IMG/VR virus record: IMGVR_UViG_3300042907_001596
Coordinates: 1 to 64,000 of that record
Direction: 5' to 3' (one strand)
Source of the DNA: a virus
Length of the DNA: 64,000 nt
The notes below the pieces were generated by a model. The model did not search any database. It had not been told where the DNA came from and saw only the letters and a list, made by a program, of their open reading frames with translations. The translations under genes and the position numbers were made by a program. Positions within the stretch are counted from its first letter, which is position 1. Every line of letters begins with the position of its first letter. Positions 1-64,000 of this stretch are shown piece after piece.

Positions 1-2
1 TC

Positions 3-1409
3 GTCACCGACTCCGACACCTCCAACTCCGCGCTCAACCCCGTCCCCTTCCTCGTCAAGCGGATCAGCACCGGGTACGTCTACCAGGAAGGTTCGGACTA
101 CGAAGTCGTGCTGGACAGCGGCACCGAGGGAACCTCGCAGGCGACCTACCGCATCAAGCGGATCATCGACGGCGACATCGCCGCCGGGGAGGTCGTCCAG
201 GTGTCCTACCGCTACACCGACGACGAGTACTACGCCCCCCAAACCTTCTACGACTACGACGACATCCGCCGGTGGTACGGCGACCCGTTCAACACCAGCG
301 AATACGCCGTCAACGGCGTGGCTAAAGGCAATGTTCTCAGCGAACTGACGCTGGCCGCAAAGTTCGCTTTCCTCAACGGGGCCTACGAGGTGATGACCGT
401 CGCGGTCGACTTCAGTTCCGCCACCACGTCCGTCGCGGCCTACGAAAATGCGCTGGATCTCCTCCAAGACAAAGACAACGTAGCGGTCGTCGTACCGTGC
501 GGCGGCGGCGTGGAGGTTGCCGCGCTGGTCAAAGCCCACATCAAGCAGCAGTCCGAGAACCGCTTTGAGCGGCGGGCCATCATCGGGGTCGACGGCAGCA
601 ACGACACCTTGCGGATCCACAAAGAGCAGCGCCTGCAACTAGCGGCGACGCTGCGCTCCGACGGCAGCGGAGAGCGAGTAGCCCTGGTCAGCCCCGACCG
701 GTTCTCCTACTACAGCCCCGAAGTGAACAAAGAGATCACCGTCGGCGGTCAGTTCATGGCCGCGTCGCTCGCCGGGATGTCCGTCAGGCTGAGCTACGCC
801 CAGCCACTGACTCACAAAGCAGTCACCGGATGGAGGGACGTTCTGACACCCACGAATTACCGCGAGGGCGACAAGAACGACGAGTCCAAAGGCGGCGTCA
901 TGGTGGTGGAAAAGACCCGCAGCCAAAAGATCTGGGTTCGCCATGGCGTCACCGTCGACAACACCGAACTGCTCTACCGGGAGTGGAACATCACCGGCCA
1001 GCAGGACGCCATGGTCTACCGGCTCCGCGACTACCTGGAGAACGCCAACCTCATCGGTCAGCCGATCTACGACTACACCCTGGTCAACGTGAAGGCAGCC
1101 GCTGAAGGTGCCCTCCAGTCGCTGCTGCGCGACGGCTTGATGGTCGACTACACCGGCCTCAAGGCCCGCCAGTTGCTGACCAACCCCGACGTGATTGAGG
1201 TCGGGTTCTCCTGGCTGCCCGCGTTCCCGTTGAACTACATCGTGGTGTCGTTCGCCGTCAGCCTGACGACCGGCAACATCAACAGCCAAGGCGCGACCGC
1301 CAACGGCGGCAACATCGGCAACCTCCAGGCGGGCAACATCACCGCTCCCGCCACCCCGATCTTCAATGACTTCGGCGGTTCGTCCAACACCCTGAACACC
1401 ACACTCTAA
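3..1409 (+). CDS. Tail sheath protein (5' truncated by window edge)
   Basis: Frame is open from position 3. The C-terminus is sheath-like (IWVRHGVT...YLENANLIGQPI...IEVGFSWLPAFPLNYIVVSF) and lies directly upstream of the tube gene. Confidence 0.88.
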   Translation, partial: VTDSDTSNSALNPVPFLVKRISTGYVYQEGSDYEVVLDSGTEGTSQATYRIKRIIDGDIAAGEVVQVSYRYTDDEYYAPQTFYDYDDIRRWYGDPFNTSEYAVNGVAKGNVLSELTLAAKFAFLNGAYEVMTVAVDFSSATTSVAAYENALDLLQDKDNVAVVVPCGGGVEVAALVKAHIKQQSENRFERRAIIGVDGSNDTLRIHKEQRLQLAATLRSDGSGERVALVSPDRFSYYSPEVNKEITVGGQFMAASLAGMSVRLSYAQPLTHKAVTGWRDVLTPTNYREGDKNDESKGGVMVVEKTRSQKIWVRHGVTVDNTELLYREWNITGQQDAMVYRLRDYLENANLIGQPIYDYTLVNVKAAAEGALQSLLRDGLMVDYTGLKARQLLTNPDVIEVGFSWLPAFPLNYIVVSFAVSLTTGNINSQGATANGGNIGNLQAGNITAPATPIFNDFGGSSNTLNTTL

Positions 1410-29049: not shown

Positions 29050-30948
29050 CTACCCTCCAAAGATCAGAAACTCCAGGTTGTCGTTCTCCGACCGGCTGGA
29101 GGAGTAGGACATCGCCTCCGTCGTACCGAGCGTTACTGATGCCAACTCCCGGCGGTCGTTACATATTCCCCACACCCGCTGCTCGACGGAATCGTCGGTG
29201 ACGTAGACGTACGCCGTCAGCCCGTCCAGGTAACTGTCGGCCCGGTCGATGCGGTTGGAGCGTTGCATCAAGATGTCCCACGAATACGGCGACTCGTAGT
29301 GAATGACGTAGCGGGCTTCGGTCATGTTCAGCCCGAAAGCCCCGGCGTCGGAGGACAGGAACACGGTGATCGCCGGGTCGGACTTGAAGTCCTCCTGGGC
29401 CTGCTGGTTCTCCCCGGCGGTGCGCCCGCCGTGGTGGGTAACGTACTTGATGCCCCGGCTCGTTAGTCCGGCGGCGATCAGATCCAAACTCATCGTCACC
29501 CACTGGGTGAAGATCAGCGTCTTGTCGCCGGAGTCGCGGATCGCCTCCACTTGGTCTAAAACGGCCTCCAGCTTCACGCTGTGCGACGAACTGACGAGGG
29601 TGGGGTGATCCTCTGCCAACTGCTTGCCGAACGGGTCTGTCGTCCATCTGAGGGCTTCGGGGTTGTTGCAGACGTACCGCAGCAGCCGGTAGAACGGCAT
29701 CAGGTTCTCCCCGACCGCCGCCGCCAGCCGTGCTTCCTCCACGATCACGTCGTACAGCCGCCGATCCTCCCGGCTCAACTGCACCGGCACGGTCACGGTT
29801 TGAAGGCCCTTGAAGTTGTCGCGGACGGCCGGGTCGGTTTTGCGCACCGACTGGGTGCGGTCGCACACCCGGTGACGCACCTCGTGCAACCGGGCCAGAT
29901 CCCACTCGTAGAAGGTGACCGGGAAGGTACCGTACCGGGTGGGCATGTTGTGGACTCTGACTTCTGCGGCGTACCGCTCCACGAAGCCCTGCCGGGAACC
30001 CAGCGGATTGTCGCCGGGGCCAGACAGCGCAAACACATCCCGGTACCGCAGGGGGCTGGCCGCGACGACCGACGCCGACATCGGCCACACCGTGGCGTGG
30101 CAGTTGAAGACCAGATCATCGAAGCGGCGGCGGAACGTGTTGGGCTTGTCGTCGGTTAGCAGCTTGGAGGCTTCGTCCGCGATGATCAGCACCCGGCGTC
30201 CGGCGGTCAACTCACTCAGAGCGCCGAAGTCCACGCGGGCCTTCTCGTAGTTCAGGACGTACACGTCGTGTCCGGCGGCGTAGCCTTTCCGGCGCTTCGC
30301 CGGGGTGCCGTCGTTGACGACGGCGTCCAGCCCGGTGGTGGAGGTGATGAATCGGCACAGGTTGGTCTTGAGGGGGCCGAGAGTGAAGGCCAGGATCACA
30401 TCGACAAGACCCCGGTTGACCATCTCTTGGGCACCGGCGGCGGCGAAACAACTCTTGCCCGTCCCGGTGGCCCACCCGACGAAGGTCAGCCGCTCGTCAG
30501 GGCGAGAAGCGTGCGCTCGCTCCAGCGCCCGGTTCAGGGTGAAAGTCTGGTAGGGGTACAGGCTGCCCTCGCCGGGGCAGACGAACCCGGCGATGTCCAG
30601 CGGCTGCTCCCACCGGGCGACCGCCTCAAGGATGGGGGCGCAGGAAGAGCCGAACAGCACCGTCCAGTCATCCTTCTCCAGAAGCTCAACGAAGTCGTGC
30701 AGCAGGAATAGCTCGTTAAGGCACAGATGCCGCGACAGCCACTCGCTGTAGGTGGCGAGGAACGGCGGCGGGTTGACGGTTTGAAACAGCAGGCTGCCGG
30801 GGTAGGAGGGATGCTGCTCAACGACTACCAGGCGATCGGGGTCGACGCCCTCGACCGCTGCGGCGAGGTCATCGGTGATCGGATACACCCCACCAACATA
30901 CCGGATGAGCAGGTGTTTCACTGATGTAGTTGCACTCGTGTCATTCAC
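29050..30948 (-). CDS. SNF2-like (SF2) DNA helicase
   Basis: ATGTGKS, IIADEAS, MSAS, FLSSDAGAFGLNM, QRSNRIDR motifs. Confidence 0.88.
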   Translation of the reverse strand: MNDTSATTSVKHLLIRYVGGVYPITDDLAAAVEGVDPDRLVVVEQHPSYPGSLLFQTVNPPPFLATYSEWLSRHLCLNELFLLHDFVELLEKDDWTVLFGSSCAPILEAVARWEQPLDIAGFVCPGEGSLYPYQTFTLNRALERAHASRPDERLTFVGWATGTGKSCFAAAGAQEMVNRGLVDVILAFTLGPLKTNLCRFITSTTGLDAVVNDGTPAKRRKGYAAGHDVYVLNYEKARVDFGALSELTAGRRVLIIADEASKLLTDDKPNTFRRRFDDLVFNCHATVWPMSASVVAASPLRYRDVFALSGPGDNPLGSRQGFVERYAAEVRVHNMPTRYGTFPVTFYEWDLARLHEVRHRVCDRTQSVRKTDPAVRDNFKGLQTVTVPVQLSREDRRLYDVIVEEARLAAAVGENLMPFYRLLRYVCNNPEALRWTTDPFGKQLAEDHPTLVSSSHSVKLEAVLDQVEAIRDSGDKTLIFTQWVTMSLDLIAAGLTSRGIKYVTHHGGRTAGENQQAQEDFKSDPAITVFLSSDAGAFGLNMTEARYVIHYESPYSWDILMQRSNRIDRADSYLDGLTAYVYVTDDSVEQRVWGICNDRRELASVTLGTTEAMSYSSSRSENDNLEFLIFGG

Positions 30949-31077: not shown

Positions 31078-31135
31078 GGTGGACGTGCGGCGATAGGTGT
31101 TTGCCTTCCCTCCGCTTTGTCGTCGTCGTCCGACC
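31078..31135 (+). ncRNA. Candidate anti-Shine-Dalgarno hairpin sRNA A
   Basis: Stems GGACG/CGTCC and GGCGATA/TGTCGTC; loop TGTTTGCCTTCCCTCCGC is complementary to the RBS at 24291-24307. Expression not shown. Confidence 0.4.
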
Positions 31136-31153
31136 GGCGCACTACGCCCTTGC

Positions 31154-31183
31154 GGGGAGGGGGGCTTTGGGGGGAGGGGAGGG
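31154..31183 (+). other. G-run cluster (potential G-quadruplex)
   Basis: GGGG-A-GGGGGG-CTTT-GGGGGG-A-GGGG-A-GGG in the divergent intergenic region. Confidence 0.5.
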
Positions 31184-31235
31184 CAAGGCCGTTTTTCGGC
31201 CCTCCTCCAGACGATGCCAGATGAAGGAGAGACAG

Positions 31236-31622: not shown

Positions 31623-31656
31623 TGTTAGAGTTGATGTGACAGAAGGGAGACACCCC

Positions 31657-34053: not shown

Positions 34054-34086
34054 GCCAGTAAAATGCTGTGTCAGAAGGAGACACCC

Positions 34087-34866
34087 TTGACACTCAACAG
34101 CATGCTGCTTTCTGACGCCGAACTGCGTCGGCTGCTGGCAGAACACCCCGAGCTTCGCGCCGACCCCGACGAATACTGCCCGACCTGCGCCAAAGTCGGC
34201 ACCTACCGCTGGCAAGGCCAAGAGTATCTGTGCGATTGCGCCACCCAGCTTCGGCTCTACAAGCGATACTTAGCCAGCGGCATCGGCGTCCCGTATCAGC
34301 GGCTGTCGTGGGTTGACATCGACCCCGAAGTCCTCACCCGGCTCGCCCCGATTATGGAGTTTCTGGAGAACCCTGAGCCGTACATCTCGCGGGGAATCGG
34401 GGTGTGGCTGTGGGGGCCACCGGGCACCGGCAAGACGATGGTGGCCACCCTCATCCTCAAAGACCTGATCGGCAAGGGGCACTACGGATTCTCCGCCTCC
34501 CAAGCCTCCACCGTCGAAGCCTTCACCGCCGGGTGGGGTGGGAACACCGACGAGAAAATGTGGTTCCAAGAGAAGTTTCTGCGCAGCCGGGTGCTGCTGC
34601 TGGATGAACTGCGCCCCGGCACCACCCGCCTGGACGAGTCGACATTCGACCATATTCTGCGCACCCGCGTTCACAACGGACGCCCGACGATCATCACCAC
34701 CAACCTCACCCCCAGCGGGCTGGAGAGTGGCTACGGATCCTCCATCTTGTCGCTGCTGGTGGAGCAGTCCGTCACCGTCAACCTGACCGGCTTCAACTTC
34801 CGCAGCCAAGCGCACGACCGGGTGATGGCGGAGATTCGCGCCAAAGAGACAAGGCCGATCGTATGA
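34087..34866 (+). CDS. dnaC: DnaC-like helicase loader (AAA+ ATPase)
   Basis: CPTC...CDC Zn site, GPPGTGKT, LLLDE, PTIITTN. TTG 34087 follows RBS GAAGGAG (alternative start ATG 34063). Confidence 0.85.
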   Translation: MTLNSMLLSDAELRRLLAEHPELRADPDEYCPTCAKVGTYRWQGQEYLCDCATQLRLYKRYLASGIGVPYQRLSWVDIDPEVLTRLAPIMEFLENPEPYISRGIGVWLWGPPGTGKTMVATLILKDLIGKGHYGFSASQASTVEAFTAGWGGNTDEKMWFQEKFLRSRVLLLDELRPGTTRLDESTFDHILRTRVHNGRPTIITTNLTPSGLESGYGSSILSLLVEQSVTVNLTGFNFRSQAHDRVMAEIRAKETRPIV

Positions 34867-36104
34867 GTCTGGAACACCGCCTGCTCTCCCACCTGACTGA
34901 CGCCGCAGAGATAGCGCGGGTCTGGGAGATCGGCGTGCGCTCCGAAGTCTTTGAAGAGCCGCTATGCCAGGCCGCGTACAACTTCATCATCGACTACTGG
35001 CTGTACAACCAGATGGACAAAGCACCGACGACGCTGGTGATCGTCACGGAGTTCCCCGGCCTCAAGCTGACCGACGAACTAGATGAGGCAACCTCGTGGT
35101 TGGCCGAGACACTGATGCGCCGCTACGCCACCAACCGGCTCAACGAAATGCTGACCGAAGCCGCCGTCACCGCGCCGGAAGATCCCGTCGGAACCCTCAA
35201 GTCTCTCCAGTCGGCTACTTACGCCGCGACCGAAGTGGTCACCCCCCGGCATAGCCGTTCTGATATGTCGAACATCCACGAGCGCAGGCAACGCTACGGC
35301 GAGCGGGTCGACCACCACGGTCAGGGCATCACGCTAGGGCTGGCCGAACTCGACGCCCACACCAACGGTCTGCTGCCCGGTGAACTGTGCGCCGTCGGGG
35401 CGTTCAGCAAGGTTGGCAAGACGATGTTCCTCGTCAACGCCGCCGTCGCCGCCCGCCGCTCCGGCCGCACCCCGATCATCTTTACGCTGGAGATGAGTTG
35501 CCGGGAGGTGGAGGACAGGATCGACGCGCTGTACTCCGGCGTCTCGTACAACCGGTTCATCCACGGCGAGTTGTCGCCCGACGAGATCGCACTGCTGCAC
35601 CGTAGCCAAGACGAGATGCAGACGCTAGGCCCGCTGTACGTCGAACGCCCCGAACGCGGCGAGCGCACCGTCGCACTGATGGTCAACCGTGCCCGCCAGC
35701 TAGGGGCCGACTACGTCATCATCGACCAACTCAGCTTCATCGACGGGGAGAAGGACAACTATCGGGGCGACCGGCCGTTGACCCAGAAGCACTCCGACAT
35801 CGTGTTCGCGCTGAAAGATGAGATCAGCCGGGAAAGCCGGGGGGCCATCCCTTGCCTGCTGGCCGTCCAGTTCAACCGGGACTCCCTCAACGAGGTCAGC
35901 CTGAAGTCTTTCGCCAACACCTCCGCGATCGAACAGACGGTCGACCTCGCGCTGGGCTTGAGCCGCACCTCCGATATGCGGGCCAACCGGCTGATGCGCC
36001 TCGACGTGCTGGGTGCCCGCCGCTCCGACATTGCCAGCTATTTGCTGCGGTGGGATCTGAGCCACCAAAGTCGGATCAGTGTGGATGAAGAGATCCACGA
36101 CTAG
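34863..36104 (+). CDS. dnaB: DnaB-like replicative helicase
   Basis: GLLPGEL, AFSKVGKT, FTLEMS, VIIDQL, AVQFNR, IEQTVD. Confidence 0.9.
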   Translation: MSLEHRLLSHLTDAAEIARVWEIGVRSEVFEEPLCQAAYNFIIDYWLYNQMDKAPTTLVIVTEFPGLKLTDELDEATSWLAETLMRRYATNRLNEMLTEAAVTAPEDPVGTLKSLQSATYAATEVVTPRHSRSDMSNIHERRQRYGERVDHHGQGITLGLAELDAHTNGLLPGELCAVGAFSKVGKTMFLVNAAVAARRSGRTPIIFTLEMSCREVEDRIDALYSGVSYNRFIHGELSPDEIALLHRSQDEMQTLGPLYVERPERGERTVALMVNRARQLGADYVIIDQLSFIDGEKDNYRGDRPLTQKHSDIVFALKDEISRESRGAIPCLLAVQFNRDSLNEVSLKSFANTSAIEQTVDLALGLSRTSDMRANRLMRLDVLGARRSDIASYLLRWDLSHQSRISVDEEIHD

Positions 36105-46428: not shown

Positions 46429-46902
46429 ATGGCCCGCCGCCTCCCCGACGACCCGGTCAAACGCCGCCTCCAACACTTCAAGAGGCTCTACCAACACTTA
46501 GAGCACTGGAAAGTGTTGCTGGAAACCGGCGACATGAGTCACCTCATCACCGTGCCCGAAACCGGTGAGGAAATCTATCTTCTCGACCTGATGGTCGGCA
46601 TCGACTCGCTGCCACCCCGCCAGCGCGAAGCCTTTGAGTTGATCTGCCTACTGGGGTACACCGAAACCGATGCCACCCGCAAAATGTTGCCCCACTCCCG
46701 ATGGTCGACCCCGATACAGCAGTACGCCGATACCGCACTGGCCCGCATGGTGGCCGCATACGACGCCGCCCAAAGCGGCAGCTACACCCACACCGTCTAC
46801 ATCAAAAAAGGGGCCAAGCCTGTCGAGGGAGCTTGCCCCACTTCACCAGGAGAGCACGATGAAGAACGAGATCCCCGAAGCAAAGCTGATGCCCCTACTT
46901 AG
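46429..46902 (+). CDS. Sigma-70 region-4-like HTH protein
   Basis: IDSLPPRQREAFELICLLGYTETDATRKM resembles sigma region 4; no region 2 recognisable. Confidence 0.65.
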   Translation: MARRLPDDPVKRRLQHFKRLYQHLEHWKVLLETGDMSHLITVPETGEEIYLLDLMVGIDSLPPRQREAFELICLLGYTETDATRKMLPHSRWSTPIQQYADTALARMVAAYDAAQSGSYTHTVYIKKGAKPVEGACPTSPGEHDEERDPRSKADAPT

Positions 46903-49348: not shown

Positions 49349-50335
49349 GTGAAGATCGCTGAATTAGAGTCCATCCTCGCTAACCGCCAGGAAGATCGGG
49401 TCGTCGCCAAAGTGGGCGAGATGAGCATCACCGACGATGCCGGAATCCTGTCCATCGGTAGCGACACCTTCCTGATGGACGAAGGGGTGGAGCGCACGCT
49501 GGCGTCCTATCTCAAGATCCCCCCGGCTTACTTGTCGGCGTGCCCTCCCGACTTCAAGGCAACCACGCTGCGCTTCTGGATGGGCGAGCACTCCGACGCC
49601 GACGCCGTAACGGAACTGATCAACGGTGCGGTGGTATCCATTCATTCCCCCGACCAACTGATGATCCCGGTGCGCCAGGTCGTCCAGGTAGCGGAGCGGG
49701 TCTTCAGCCCCGACGCTGAAGTGCGGCACAACTATCTGGATGACGAGCGTGTGCATCTCGACATCACTACATCAGAGCATCAAGTCGATGTGCAGTCCCC
49801 GGTGTACCGCCAAGTTGGGGACATTACCGAAGCGGGCTTGCGCTTCCTGGCCTACCCCACCCAAACCAAAGCCCCCAGCGTGGGGGCTTACCTGGAGCGG
49901 CTGGCCTGCACCAACGGTATGACCACCACGGAGCGGGCCGGACAGATCAGCCTGCGCGGCCGTACCGTCGATGAAGTCATCGAAGAGATGGAGCAGGCTG
50001 CCCGCATGATGCTCAGCACCCTCGACAATCGGTTGGAGCGCTATGCCGCCACCGCCCGCCAGCCCATCCCCGGCTCCCGGCAGGCGTTCGCCCACCAACT
50101 TGCCCGCGAAGCCAACCTGCCCCGGTCGGTGCTGGATTCGGTGATGGAGCTAGTCAACCAGCTTCCCGACAACGCGACGGTCTACGACATCAACCAGGCG
50201 TTCACTTCTGTGGCTAACACCGACGTGAACTACGCCACCCGCATGCGCCTCCAGGCGCTGGGCGGATCCATGGCTTTTGAAGCGGAGCGGATCCTAGCCC
50301 GCTGCGGAACGTGTCAACATCCCTTGGAGGTTTGA
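49349..50335 (+). CDS. DUF932-family protein
   Basis: ERLACTNGM signature. Confidence 0.72.
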   Translation: MKIAELESILANRQEDRVVAKVGEMSITDDAGILSIGSDTFLMDEGVERTLASYLKIPPAYLSACPPDFKATTLRFWMGEHSDADAVTELINGAVVSIHSPDQLMIPVRQVVQVAERVFSPDAEVRHNYLDDERVHLDITTSEHQVDVQSPVYRQVGDITEAGLRFLAYPTQTKAPSVGAYLERLACTNGMTTTERAGQISLRGRTVDEVIEEMEQAARMMLSTLDNRLERYAATARQPIPGSRQAFAHQLAREANLPRSVLDSVMELVNQLPDNATVYDINQAFTSVANTDVNYATRMRLQALGGSMAFEAERILARCGTCQHPLEV

Positions 50336-50515
50336 GTGAAAACTACCCTGACATTGGCGTCCGTCGCCATGAAAAAGGCTTTGGATGCTTACCACCCGAC
50401 ACAAAAAGCCCAACTGATCAACGAGTCCATCGCGTTGAGCTTGGTGTCGATTGCCGAAAATCTCAACAGGCTGGGGCGGCAGCCTCCTCCGAAAGCGAAC
50501 CTAGGTAGCGAGTAA
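50336..50515 (+). CDS. Small hypothetical protein, 59 aa (not in ORF track)
   Basis: RBS GGAGG, GTG start; ESIALSLVSIAENL. Confidence 0.55.
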   Translation: MKTTLTLASVAMKKALDAYHPTQKAQLINESIALSLVSIAENLNRLGRQPPPKANLGSE

Positions 50516-50592
50516 GAGGTGTAAGCCGACGTGATTCCCGACGTATTCGGGGACGTGCGGCCCCGCCACCCCAGCAACGGGGTATAGTTCTC

Positions 50593-50646
50593 GTGGGCCG
50601 GTGGGCGTATACGGGTGTCTCCTTCCGTCCACCGGCCTACCTTCTT
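50593..50646 (+). ncRNA. Candidate anti-Shine-Dalgarno hairpin sRNA B (or structured leader)
   Basis: TATAGT -10 at 50583; 15-bp stem 50593-50607/50626-50640; loop contains GGGTGTCTCCTTC; CTTCTT tail. Confidence 0.5.
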
Positions 50647-50660
50647 GTGAGGAGGGCCAG

Positions 50661-51128
50661 ATGGCCATCGACATGACCAACGCCAATGAGGGCGTCAGCG
50701 ATCTGTACGACAGTGAGCGCAAAGCCATCATCGGGATCCGTGCCCAGATGATGAGCAAATACTCCTTCAAAGCGATCGACTCCTTCAAGGCCGAAGACGA
50801 CATGAAGAACAAGATCTCCCAAGAGATCCGCCAGCGGTGCGCCGAGATCGGCTTCGTCGTAGAGGTGGAGTGGGAGTGGGAGAAGTTCGATGAGAAGACC
50901 GGCGAACTCGTTGACTTCAGCCCCACCGTGTCCTCCAACCCCAACGACCGTGCGATGTACTGGGTGCCCAACGTCGTGGCAACAGGCCGCACCGACAAGA
51001 CCGTCACGGAGTTCGACCACGACCGGCAAAAGCACGAGATTCGCTCCGGCCTGCTCGACGGCAAGGTGGGCGTGATCAACCCCAACACCGGGCAGATCAC
51101 CGAACCGAAGAAGAAGAACATCTACTGA
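50661..51128 (+). CDS. Hypothetical protein
   Basis: RBS GAGGAGGG, ATG 50661. Confidence 0.72.
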   Translation: MAIDMTNANEGVSDLYDSERKAIIGIRAQMMSKYSFKAIDSFKAEDDMKNKISQEIRQRCAEIGFVVEVEWEWEKFDEKTGELVDFSPTVSSNPNDRAMYWVPNVVATGRTDKTVTEFDHDRQKHEIRSGLLDGKVGVINPNTGQITEPKKKNIY

Positions 51129-51985: not shown

Positions 51986-52017
51986 TATAATTGAAGGTGA
52001 GGCCACAGAGTGTGGCC
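51986..52017 (+). promoter_or_regulatory. SigA-type -10 TATAAT plus 5' hairpin
   Basis: TATAAT 51986; GGCCACA/TGTGGCC hairpin 52001-52017 before RBS GGAAGGAG. Confidence 0.55.
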
Positions 52018-52034
52018 GGAAGGAGACACCTTCG

Positions 52035-52247
52035 ATGTCCAAACCCAAACGGTGCCGCTGCGGTCAGATACTGCAAGGCCGTCAACGTATCCACTGCGCC
52101 CAGTGCTACCTCAAGCGCCACCCCGGCTCCAGCCAGTGCCCCCGCTGCTTCCAGTGGTACATGAGCCACGGCGGCAAGGCGTACGCCTCCATCGTGAAGC
52201 TGCACGCCACCGGCAAGTGCAAGAAGCAGGAGGCGGTGGCGGCATGA
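52035..52247 (+). CDS. Small Cys-rich protein
   Basis: CRCG, CAQC, CPRC; strong RBS. Confidence 0.65.
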   Translation: MSKPKRCRCGQILQGRQRIHCAQCYLKRHPGSSQCPRCFQWYMSHGGKAYASIVKLHATGKCKKQEAVAA

Positions 52248-58997: not shown

Positions 58998-59019
58998 CGG
59001 CGTTGTAACAAGTGGCGGG
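58979..59019 (+). promoter_or_regulatory. Class-1 promoter (copy 5, TGGCGGG variant)
   Basis: GGAAT 58979, GTT 59002, TGGCGGG 59013, hairpin GGCGGGA/TCCGCC. Confidence 0.75.
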
Positions 59020-59044
59020 ATCATCCGCCTGGAAGGAGACACCC

Positions 59045-62452: not shown

Positions 62453-62532
62453 CACAGCCCCGGCTAGCTTGCCAGAGCGAAAAGCGGACGTTGCTGCACT
62501 TACTCCGTTCGCACCCGCCTGCCGGGGCTGTG
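62453..62532 (+). ncRNA. Candidate 80-nt hairpin RNA
   Basis: Perfect 12-bp terminal stem CACAGCCCCGGC/GCCGGGGCTGTG with inner helix; TAAACT -10 at 62440. Confidence 0.4.
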
Positions 62533-62575: not shown

Positions 62576-64000
62576 ATGACACGGCGGATTCAGCGGCAAC
62601 GGGAGGCGTTTGCCTATCGGGTCGCTGAGGTTGAGGGCTACCCCCGCGACTACAGCTTGACGACGTGGACGCCGGAAGAGGAAGCCCTCGCCGCCGAACT
62701 AGGCGAACGCCTCCAGCAGAAGGGCATCAGCGGCTTCGGTGCCGACACCATGACCCAAGCGTTGCAGGAACTGATCCTGATGCGCCGGGAGCGCGAGGAA
62801 GCACCGTGGTCGGAAGACTACGACAAAGCGTACAACGACTGGGAAGCCGGACACGAAAGCGACAAGCTGGCCCGCCGGATCGCCACGCGGGCGCTGATGG
62901 CGGTAGTCCCGATGAACGCCCCCGACGGCTATGACCCGGCCGACTACGACCCCCACGACCTCTACGCAGGCAATCCCCCGCACGAAGCTCTGCTCTCCCG
63001 CCTGGAGAAGAAGTTCATGGGCTGGTACGAACAGCACGGCCAGGAGCATCTGAACTACGCCGGACGAGGCCCGCTAGGTAACTGGCACCAGATCGAACAG
63101 TTCCTCAAGATGCACTACCCCGAAGCGCACCGGGGGCTGAACACCGGCTTTGAGGGCGCGATGCCGCTGATTGACTACGGCGACCAACCCGGCCGCGACC
63201 GACGCAAGGTCTTCACTGAAGAAAAGCTCAACAACCTCCCTGGATACGCCACCGGGCCGGAGGCAGTGGCTCAGCACGGTTATGACCCCAAAGAGGTCGC
63301 GGCGGGCATGCTGCTTCTGCACAACCGCACTCACGACCACCGGGGCGGGGACATTGAGCAGGCGGGCATCGACCGGCTGTACGACATTGCCCAGAAGCGT
63401 TTTGAGATGCAGCGGGCGTATGAGCAGCGCCAGAAGACGGCGTACTACGGCGATGGCCTCCGCACCAACCCCAACTCCCCCACCGGCCTGCCCCTGCTGG
63501 GAGATCCCACCCCCGAACTGACCGGCGAGGAAAGCCAGGAGCTTTACGACCAGATCTCTCAGGCCGACGTGCTGGGCCGGGTGAACCAAGAGTTCCACGA
63601 CTGGGCGTACGAGAACAACAAAGAAAACCCGTACGACGAAGAAGGCTCCCTTGGCTGGCACGGCGAGGCGCGAGGCCCGATCGGCTACTGGCCGCACGTC
63701 GAAGACTTCCTCAAGGAGAAATATCCGGCAGCCCACCGGGGCTTGTCGTTGGGCATGGAGGACGCTGGGTATCTGCTCGACGTACTTCCGACCGGCAAGG
63801 GGTGGGACAAGCCCAGCGTTAGAGGCAAGGATCCGTACGAGACGGGCATCGACGCTGTCGCCCAGCATGGGTACGACCCGAAGGAGATCGTCGCCGCCCT
63901 CATGCTGCTGCACAACGACACCTCGCTGTTGCGCCGCAACAAGCAGGGCATCCAAGACGAGGATCTAGAGCGGCTGCACGACATCGCCGCCCGTCGCTAC
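62576..64000 (+). CDS. Large protein with tandem ~200-aa repeat (3' truncated, not in ORF track)
   Basis: Open from ATG 62576 to window end (475 codons); RGPxGxW...FLKxxYPxAHRGL...AVAQHGYDPKE...LLHN occurs twice. Confidence 0.8.
   Translation, partial: MTRRIQRQREAFAYRVAEVEGYPRDYSLTTWTPEEEALAAELGERLQQKGISGFGADTMTQALQELILMRREREEAPWSEDYDKAYNDWEAGHESDKLARRIATRALMAVVPMNAPDGYDPADYDPHDLYAGNPPHEALLSRLEKKFMGWYEQHGQEHLNYAGRGPLGNWHQIEQFLKMHYPEAHRGLNTGFEGAMPLIDYGDQPGRDRRKVFTEEKLNNLPGYATGPEAVAQHGYDPKEVAAGMLLLHNRTHDHRGGDIEQAGIDRLYDIAQKRFEMQRAYEQRQKTAYYGDGLRTNPNSPTGLPLLGDPTPELTGEESQELYDQISQADVLGRVNQEFHDWAYENNKENPYDEEGSLGWHGEARGPIGYWPHVEDFLKEKYPAAHRGLSLGMEDAGYLLDVLPTGKGWDKPSVRGKDPYETGIDAVAQHGYDPKEIVAALMLLHNDTSLLRRNKQGIQDEDLERLHDIAARRY

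Follow-up and report, generated by a model that had tools for sequence, protein, structure and literature searches.

How should an RNA hairpin be understood that lies immediately upstream of one phage gene and carries in its loop the complement of the ribosome-binding sites (RBSs) of several others? This question is raised by hairpin B (50593-50640, plus strand) of the window, by which we mean the whole stretch of DNA analyzed here, the first 64 kb (64,000 nucleotides) of a 150,440-bp IMG/VR virus record with a G+C content of 63%. The source is an uncultured actinobacteriophage, nearly all of whose genes lie on the plus strand and whose proteins are ~35-45% identical to those of Cluster C mycobacteriophages and some Gordonia phages. 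Megablast of the hairpin region found no close DNA relative among GenBank phages, two protein queries of IMG/VR yielded no close relative, and ARAGORN found no tRNA genes in the window. The ends of the record overlap, with the same sequence context at positions 45 and 150,265 (window 1-130 and genome 150,221-150,350), which is a terminal repeat or a circular assembly, though the record is classed as linear. Elsewhere in the window, an Rfam match to int-alpA RNA (62457-62529, plus strand; 38 bits against a gathering score of 35.8) sits just upstream of a giant ORF that starts at 62576. A second stem-loop, within 31078-31210 (plus strand), has a CU-rich loop (~31098-31115) resembling an anti-Shine-Dalgarno (anti-SD) sequence and is followed on its 3' side by an unusually G-rich tract (31151-31185) and then by a small hairpin and a CUCCUCC stretch; this is a divergent control region, with the minus-strand gene 29050-30948 on one side and the plus-strand genes on the other.

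Hairpin B folds as a 15-bp stem with an 18-nt loop. Its 5' arm (50593-50607), loop (50608-50625) and 3' arm (50626-50640) include two G:U pairs (50595:50638 and 50605:50628), and folded alone it reaches -32.8 kcal/mol; the 83-nt stretch that holds it has z = -2.5 relative to shuffles. The hairpin is preceded by TATAGT, a SigA-type -10-like hexamer (50583-50588, plus strand), and followed by a pyrimidine-rich tail (50641-50648) with CTTCTT at 50641-50646. Hexamer, stem, loop and tail all lie exactly where a preliminary description of this DNA had placed them. Next come the RBS of the downstream gene (50649-50656), a spacer to 50660, and the gene itself (50661-51128, plus strand), which encodes a 155-aa protein. 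Because only 20 nt separate the hairpin from ATG 50661, hairpin B must form at least part of the leader of this gene. The protein is conserved, with homologues in 20 protein clusters at identities from 86% down to ~40%, and is ~45% identical to Cluster C mycobacteriophage proteins such as Cali gp218. It matches no Pfam family, and the neighboring genes are without informative Pfam families. In Cali (NC_011271; 1246-1402 of our locus L154), two tRNA genes and not the structured element lie upstream of the homologous gp218.

The loci of relatives of the 155-aa protein, in metagenome assemblies, provided the lineages for comparison, and the element was found upstream of the gene in each. Eleven lineages were compared: that of the window, L115, L116, L119/L152, L121, L124, L129, L146/L155, L148, L149 and L150. 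Across 14 aligned pairs of the hairpin B stem, 94% of cells are paired and seven pairs carry compensatory changes, a result reached by 0 of 500 shuffles; controls with slid partners leave only 31-53% of cells paired. A 7-bp core of the stem is invariant, and the inner and outer parts of the stem vary between lineages yet remain paired. In L115 and L116, a G that stands opposite U in the window is replaced by A, a G:U to A:U change that preserves pairing only in the plus-strand RNA. Covariation and strand-specific changes of this kind confirm that the stem-loop described earlier is a real RNA structure of the plus strand. Its tail is C/U-rich in all lineages, though varying in sequence, and U-rich in only some of them, with five U in eight nt here.

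The loop is conserved in a different manner. Its length ranges from 12 to 45 nt across lineages, and every lineage carries a pyrimidine core, CUCCUUC (CCCCUUC in L121), on the loop's 3' side, with 0-5 nt between it and the 3' arm. This core has the sense of the 16S rRNA 3' tail and is therefore an anti-SD sequence. Part of it is predicted to pair within the loop as a 3-bp mini-helix. A search of 50250-50750 against Rfam 15, with E-values up to 10, gave only chance-level matches (best E-value 0.99), and neither the 6C sRNA model (RF01066) nor the C4 models matched there at that threshold.

In the window, the anti-SD core (CUCCUUC, 50619-50625) is part of a longer segment (50613-50627) that has a lineage-specific 5' extension (50613-50618), and it is this longer segment that corresponds to RBSs elsewhere in the genome. 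About a dozen genes are preceded by a private RBS tag, GGAAGGAG followed by the spacer ACACC. The preliminary description held that 50613-50627 is the reverse complement of four RBSs next to start codons, and this is exact for all four. The longest matches are of 14 nt, at 52017-52030 before a 70-aa gene (ATG 52035) and at 59031-59044 before an 83-aa gene (ATG 59045); 13 nt match at 34074-34086, before a gene that begins with an in-frame TTG at 34087 and encodes an IstB/DnaC-like ATPase (Pfam IstB_IS21, E 1.7e-6), and a shorter copy of 10 nt at 31646-31655 precedes a 26-aa hydrophobic ORF (ATG 31657). All four sites are on the plus strand. Read on the minus strand, the motif in the loop is not followed by a start codon (ATG, GTG or TTG), again as had been described.

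With up to one mismatch allowed, the 13-nt tag occurs 11 times in the forward direction in the whole 150,440-bp genome, each time abutting a start codon, and once reversed, in the hairpin loop (50614-50626). The tag read backwards, as a control, does not occur in the genome at all. Eight further tagged sites lie beyond the window. That the match extends past a generic SD had been pointed out earlier; it was compared with chance, given SD composition, by shuffling the flanks of the loop with the core held fixed: 12 plus-strand sites in the genome are complementary to the loop over at least 11 exact nt, compared with a mean of 0.72 sites for the shuffled loops, which reach 12 in 0.2% of 1000 trials (p ~0.002). 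Energies agree with this picture. Duplexes of the loop with the tagged sites lie at -27 to -29 kcal/mol, the site at 59031-59044 being the best in the genome (-29.4 kcal/mol), and duplexes at or below -22 kcal/mol are found at 26 plus-strand sites versus 9 minus-strand sites in a genome scan. When the 3' arm is included with the loop, pairing with the leader at 52017-52030 reaches -37.1 kcal/mol, a value attained by 0 of 2000 core-preserving shuffles. In IMG/VR the 14-nt tag has 114 matches, all single, which give no hint of kinship. The same loop core also occurs in another hairpin, near genome position 133,040; it falls within a well-scoring coding gene and was rejected as a chance occurrence.

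Based on these observations, we propose that hairpin B is an antisense RNA loop that masks the tagged RBSs, whether as an mRNA leader or as a short RNA that is released, and we give this proposal a probability of roughly 0.45. In the proposed mechanism, transcription would start at the SigA-type TATAGT, which would place hairpin B at or near the 5' end of the transcript. The loop would present an unpaired anti-SD sequence at its 3' side, and in this phage that sequence would have grown to a 13-14-nt complement of the private tag. Pairing in trans with the tagged RBSs, expected to be best with the full tag, would compete with the 30S subunit and result in less translation. The RNA could act as an intact leader, or as a short RNA produced by partial termination or cleavage in the pyrimidine tail. 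On this proposal, the tag positions that are unable to pair with 16S rRNA would be kept because they pair with the loop. The sequences show the structure of the hairpin, its conservation and strand, and the complementarity with its statistics; transcription from TATAGT, short RNA release, pairing in vivo and repression, including the previously suggested repression of a defined gene set, are inferences.

The hexamer from which this transcript would start is well preserved. TATAGT lies 5-12 nt before the base of hairpin B in 10 of the 11 lineages, amid variable flanks, which favors the earlier assignment of a promoter-like -10 box at this position; the exception is L150, in which the upstream domain is joined directly to the hairpin. 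The plus strand of the 150-kb genome has just three TATA[AG]T hexamers (50583, 51986 and 131989), all of them intergenic and all followed within 8-14 nt by a hairpin and then by an RBS and a start codon. The second is the TATAAT (51986-51991) of the 70-aa gene, whose 5' hairpin (52001-52017) leads into the tagged RBS. The third, a TATAAT outside the window (in genome 131989-132049), leads into a hairpin and then an RBS, of which 10 nt are complementary to the hairpin B loop. In addition to the sites with the module described next, two tagged sites sit behind a TATAAT hexamer and a hairpin.

Another promoter-like module, GGAAT-N18-GTT, stands with fixed spacing ahead of six tagged sites, and five of the six run into a 5' hairpin and then the tagged RBS. 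The copies are at 59000-59044 in the window and at 67,4xx, 67,7xx, 80,8xx, 105,9xx and 109,4xx in the genome; the copy at 109471 has no hairpin. In the module hairpins, the arms are SD-like and anti-SD-like. One further tagged site, at 105573, has the hairpin and the tagged RBS and aligns with the modules without having GGAAT-N18-GTT, and the same modules are carried by the relative L152. Opening a transcript with a stem-loop seems to be customary in this phage group, and hairpin B conforms to the pattern. A 157-aa protein encoded at 46429-46902 (plus strand) has a weak match to sigma-70 region 4 (Pfam Sigma70_r4_2, E 1.9e-4, below the cut-off), which makes it a candidate reader of the GGAAT-N18-GTT modules.

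How an RNA begun at TATAGT would end is a separate matter. A simple scan called neither a promoter nor a terminator at hairpin B. Among terminator features the GC-rich stem is present, the 18-nt loop (12-45 nt in relatives) is atypical, and there is no clear U-tract. The preliminary description had proposed a trans-acting sRNA of ~55 nt: the conserved promoter-like hexamer upstream is in its favor, whereas the tail has no clear U-tract and the hairpin belongs both to a ~190-nt structured region and to the leader of a gene. Leaky termination or cleavage could yield a free short RNA.

Proximity to the 155-aa gene suggests instead that hairpin B might act in cis only, as a 5'-terminal stabilizer and/or translational operator of that gene, with the matches to other RBSs being a by-product of similar strong RBSs; we regard this as credible, if unlikely. 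In its variants, the loop would form a pseudoknot with its own RBS, or the hairpin would keep the leader from misfolding. In most lineages the hairpin lies 9-16 nt upstream of its own SD (35-40 nt in L129 and L150), which leaves no room for a second promoter, and the three TATAAT-like promoters and the GGAAT-N18-GTT modules also begin transcripts with a hairpin. The own SDs permit 4-7 bp with the loop in every lineage, and only the generic core of the loop is invariant across relatives, both in keeping with a cis function. However, this pairing shows no covariation, and the cis alternative that had been named earlier, pairing with the RBS at 50649, turns out to be weak: its -15.1 kcal/mol is an ordinary value, matched or beaten by 5% of genome windows, versus the -27 to -29 kcal/mol of the tagged sites. 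In folds of the lineages, the pyrimidine tail does not consistently mask the own SD. In L121 and L150 the own SD is weak and the loop core is still kept, and in the window the extension beyond the core fits other genes and not the hairpin's own. A pseudoknot would also have to be formed across a 15-bp stem with 9-16 nt to span, which argues against it on geometric grounds, and the analogous hairpin of the Cluster K phage Anaya, discussed below, lies 160 nt from the next gene.

If, as we propose, the loop acts in trans, then loop and target should have changed together in relatives. We compared the loop and 3' arm with the leader of the TATAAT-promoter gene (the gene at 52035 here) in five lineages, and any co-change of loop and tag across lineages rests on 3.5-20-kb pieces of the relatives. 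These were scanned by exact match and with the loop only, since searches with the loop and both arms were swamped by GC-rich background. In four of the five lineages, the best partner is the TATAAT-gene leader of the same lineage, and in two, those of the window and of L121, 0 of 2000 core-preserving shuffles reach the observed energy. L121 achieves this with a different 12-nt perfect match. The own-lineage match does not stand out from shuffles in L148 (p 0.24) or in L155 (p 0.29), and in L152 it is borderline (0.06). A 20-kb stretch of L152 contains promoter-hairpin-RBS modules with RBS spacers that are not uniform, so the extended match between tag and loop is not a family-wide rule. The family-wide constant is a generic anti-SD loop, and the long match to a uniform tag is peculiar to the window lineage and, in another form, to L121. 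The leader at 51986-52034 is the best conserved candidate target of the loop.

Hairpin B is not an isolated structure. It is the 3' part of a conserved structured region of ~190 nt that starts near 50469 and was overlooked in the preliminary description. The ~105 nt upstream of TATAGT are conserved even where proteins are only ~55% identical, and they fold into a domain of helices, all on the plus strand, that we call P1-P4. P1 (50469-50484) is a 5-bp hairpin with a G-rich 6-nt loop (GGCGG core), both invariant across the 11 lineages apart from a single compensatory change, G:C to A:U, in L149. P2 (50486-50489 with 50516-50519) has compensatory changes in four of its five pairs and encloses a conserved internal region with a 6-nt palindrome. 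P3/P4 is a composite hairpin (50525-50561), with an outer helix (50525-50532 with 50553-50561, one bulge) and an inner helix (50536-50541 with 50547-50552); the sequence of P3 differs in every lineage and pairs in each when folded alone, and the loop of the P4 inner helix is nearly invariant. Over 19 pairs of P1-P4, 90% of cells are paired and eight pairs have compensatory changes, a combination matched by 0 of 500 shuffles, versus 35-56% of cells paired in slid-partner controls. The domain is followed by a conserved C-rich strand (50562-50572, CCGCC core) that is complementary to the P1 loop and is used as a closing helix in the fold of the whole element; a pseudoknot or long-range closing helix between the P1 loop and 50562-50572 is therefore possible. 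The same strand may also pair with 7-9 nt of the hairpin B 5' arm in most relatives, judging from complementarity. Rfam holds no family for the domain. The invariant P1 16-mer has 49 matches in IMG/VR, none of them accompanied by other parts of the element, and the combined pattern has 0. A 59-aa ORF (50336-50515, plus strand) is found only in the window, L115, L116 and L146 lineages, and it overlaps the RNA domain by its last 45 nt and its stop codon, the latter within P2; the domain persists where the ORF is absent.

Such a domain invites comparison with an attenuator, either riboswitch-like or under the control of a protein, in which P1-P4 would be the sensor and hairpin B the terminator or expression platform. 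The switch would lie in the C-rich strand: bound to the P1 loop, it would leave hairpin B free to form, and bound to the 5' arm of hairpin B it would permit read-through. We consider this improbable, even though several observations favor it. The upstream ~105 nt are structured and covarying, with P3 pairing in every lineage; the C-rich strand is complementary to both of its proposed partners, and an invariant 7-bp stem core would be expected of a strand with two partners. Moreover, the domain begins within ~10 nt of the stop codon of the upstream gene in several lineages, which implies that it is transcribed with that gene, and in L150 it runs directly into the hairpin without TATAGT. Against this stand the same hexamer, invariant between sensor and hairpin in the other 10 lineages, the lack of a U-tract and of any Rfam family match, and a loop of 18-45 nt that is atypical of a terminator. 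An attenuator also leaves the anti-SD core of the loop and its complement to the tag unaccounted for.

It is highly improbable that the loop is instead a recognition site for protein, whether for RNA polymerase or an antiterminator (put/nut-like), for ribosomal protein S1, or for a nuclease of the 16S 3' end that it would engage as a decoy. The stem and loop cores are invariant in sequence and not only in pairing, the position is promoter-proximal, and the loop is similar to the 16S 3' tail, with UCCUU in it. MazF-mt3 cleaves UCCUU. However, L121 is without UCCUU, no partner protein was identified, the neighboring genes are without informative families, and a protein site does not account for the lineage-specific complement to the tag. 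Scarcely credible, finally, is a DNA-level feature or chance, the palindrome being a DNA element and the reversed tag either left over from recombination or an inverted duplicate of a DNA-binding site. An inverted DNA repeat automatically yields RNA complementarity and the tag could be a protein site, but only one strand tolerates G:U pairs and bulges, a loop of 12-45 nt with covarying stems is unlike a dimeric DNA site, Cluster K shows the layout again, and the statistics of tag and complement oppose chance.

None of these alternatives explains the complement to the tag as simply as masking of the tagged RBSs by the hairpin B loop; the cis and attenuator readings are compatible with everything else.

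The closest parallel to this arrangement comes from Cluster K mycobacteriophages, for which 13-bp start-associated sequences (SAS) have been described (Pope et al. 2011, PMC3203893); the role of SAS was still called ill-defined in papers of 2024 and 2025 (PMC11373665; PMC12699233). Like the tag, SAS are asymmetric motifs of ~13 nt with an SD core and conserved positions that are unable to pair with 16S rRNA, and they occur in one orientation a few nt before the starts of about a dozen non-structural genes. A subset of sites, the ESAS in Cluster K, sits behind a promoter and an inverted repeat; here this is the GGAAT-N18-GTT or TATAAT with its hairpin. In both groups, a single reversed copy lies away from a gene start and in a hairpin loop. 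Anaya (JF704106) has one reversed SAS (34871-34883 of our locus L205), in a 385-nt non-coding gap between genes 96 and 97 and after a classic terminator, where it makes up the 10-nt loop of a 6-bp hairpin; around this hairpin lies a 10-bp outer stem with two G:U pairs on the plus strand. The region of this hairpin is conserved in 182 Cluster K records, and nine aligned Cluster K phages show compensatory changes in the stem. Among these nine, K1 phages have the SAS complement as the loop and three others have a generic CU-rich anti-SD there, and one phage is without it. Further conserved hairpins flank the anti-SAS hairpin in the gap (L205 34803-34840 and 34925-35020), and a short stretch 3' of the Anaya hairpin resembles the 5' side of P3/P4 (~12 of 14 nt), by homology or chance. 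Rfam has no family for the Anaya hairpin, and no link between a reversed SAS-type copy and a hairpin loop was found in the literature searched. The two systems differ in phage group and in promoter type, the promoters here being mostly GGAAT-N18-GTT, and in placement: hairpin B stands just before a gene, whereas the Anaya hairpin lies inside a longer non-coding region. The published 13-bp consensus is not matched here, which makes the tag an analogue of SAS and not a member. Two unrelated phage groups nevertheless share the design, and in both some loops match the tag and others are generic.

This parallel leads us to a wider and more tentative suggestion, for which the odds are against but not heavily so: that SAS-type tags are address labels read by one phage RNA hairpin, with one RNA setting how strongly a regulon of at least a dozen scattered genes is translated, in Cluster K as here. 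If true, this would explain the SAS positions that are unable to pair with 16S rRNA, which have gone unexplained since 2011 even as SAS have been catalogued in hundreds of mycobacteriophages. It would also add a layer of translational timing to phage gene control and provide a compact, programmable tag-antitag pair for mycobacterial genetics. The finding of one reversed copy in a conserved hairpin loop in two unrelated groups opens the way to a cheap test in Cluster K phages and Mycobacterium smegmatis.

Among characterized RNAs, the 6C sRNA needs no chaperone to bind RBSs through its C-rich loops (Mai et al. 2019, PMC6486639). Hairpin B shares with the 6C/B11 sRNAs a high-GC Gram-positive setting and the use of pyrimidine-rich loops that would pair with the purine-rich RBSs of several mRNAs without Hfq or ProQ, and in both cases the hairpins may double as terminators. 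It differs in that RF01066 is unmatched, in having one loop and not two, in being CU-rich where 6C has a C6 run (except in L121), and in being phage-encoded and located in an mRNA leader. With riboswitches and attenuators the element has in common a covarying domain, a long-range closing pairing and a strong GC hairpin followed by the gene that would be regulated, as well as, here, one C-rich strand with two possible partners; it departs from them in matching no aptamer class, in lacking a U-tract, in the -10-like hexamer between domain and hairpin, and in its conserved anti-SD loop. Citron and Schuster reportedly found in 1990 that the c4 antisense RNA of phages P1 and P7 blocks translation by means of exposed loops complementary to an RBS region. 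Hairpin B resembles c4 in being a phage-encoded RNA structure with an exposed loop complementary to the RBSs of the phage's own transcripts, without sequence or Rfam similarity to it. Whereas c4 is a processing product of its own operon, on which it also acts within an immunity circuit, here many dispersed genes carry the target. Antisense RNA loops that mask RBSs are thus a known mechanism; what would be new, within the literature searched, is a phage RNA that reads a private tag common to many of the phage's own genes.
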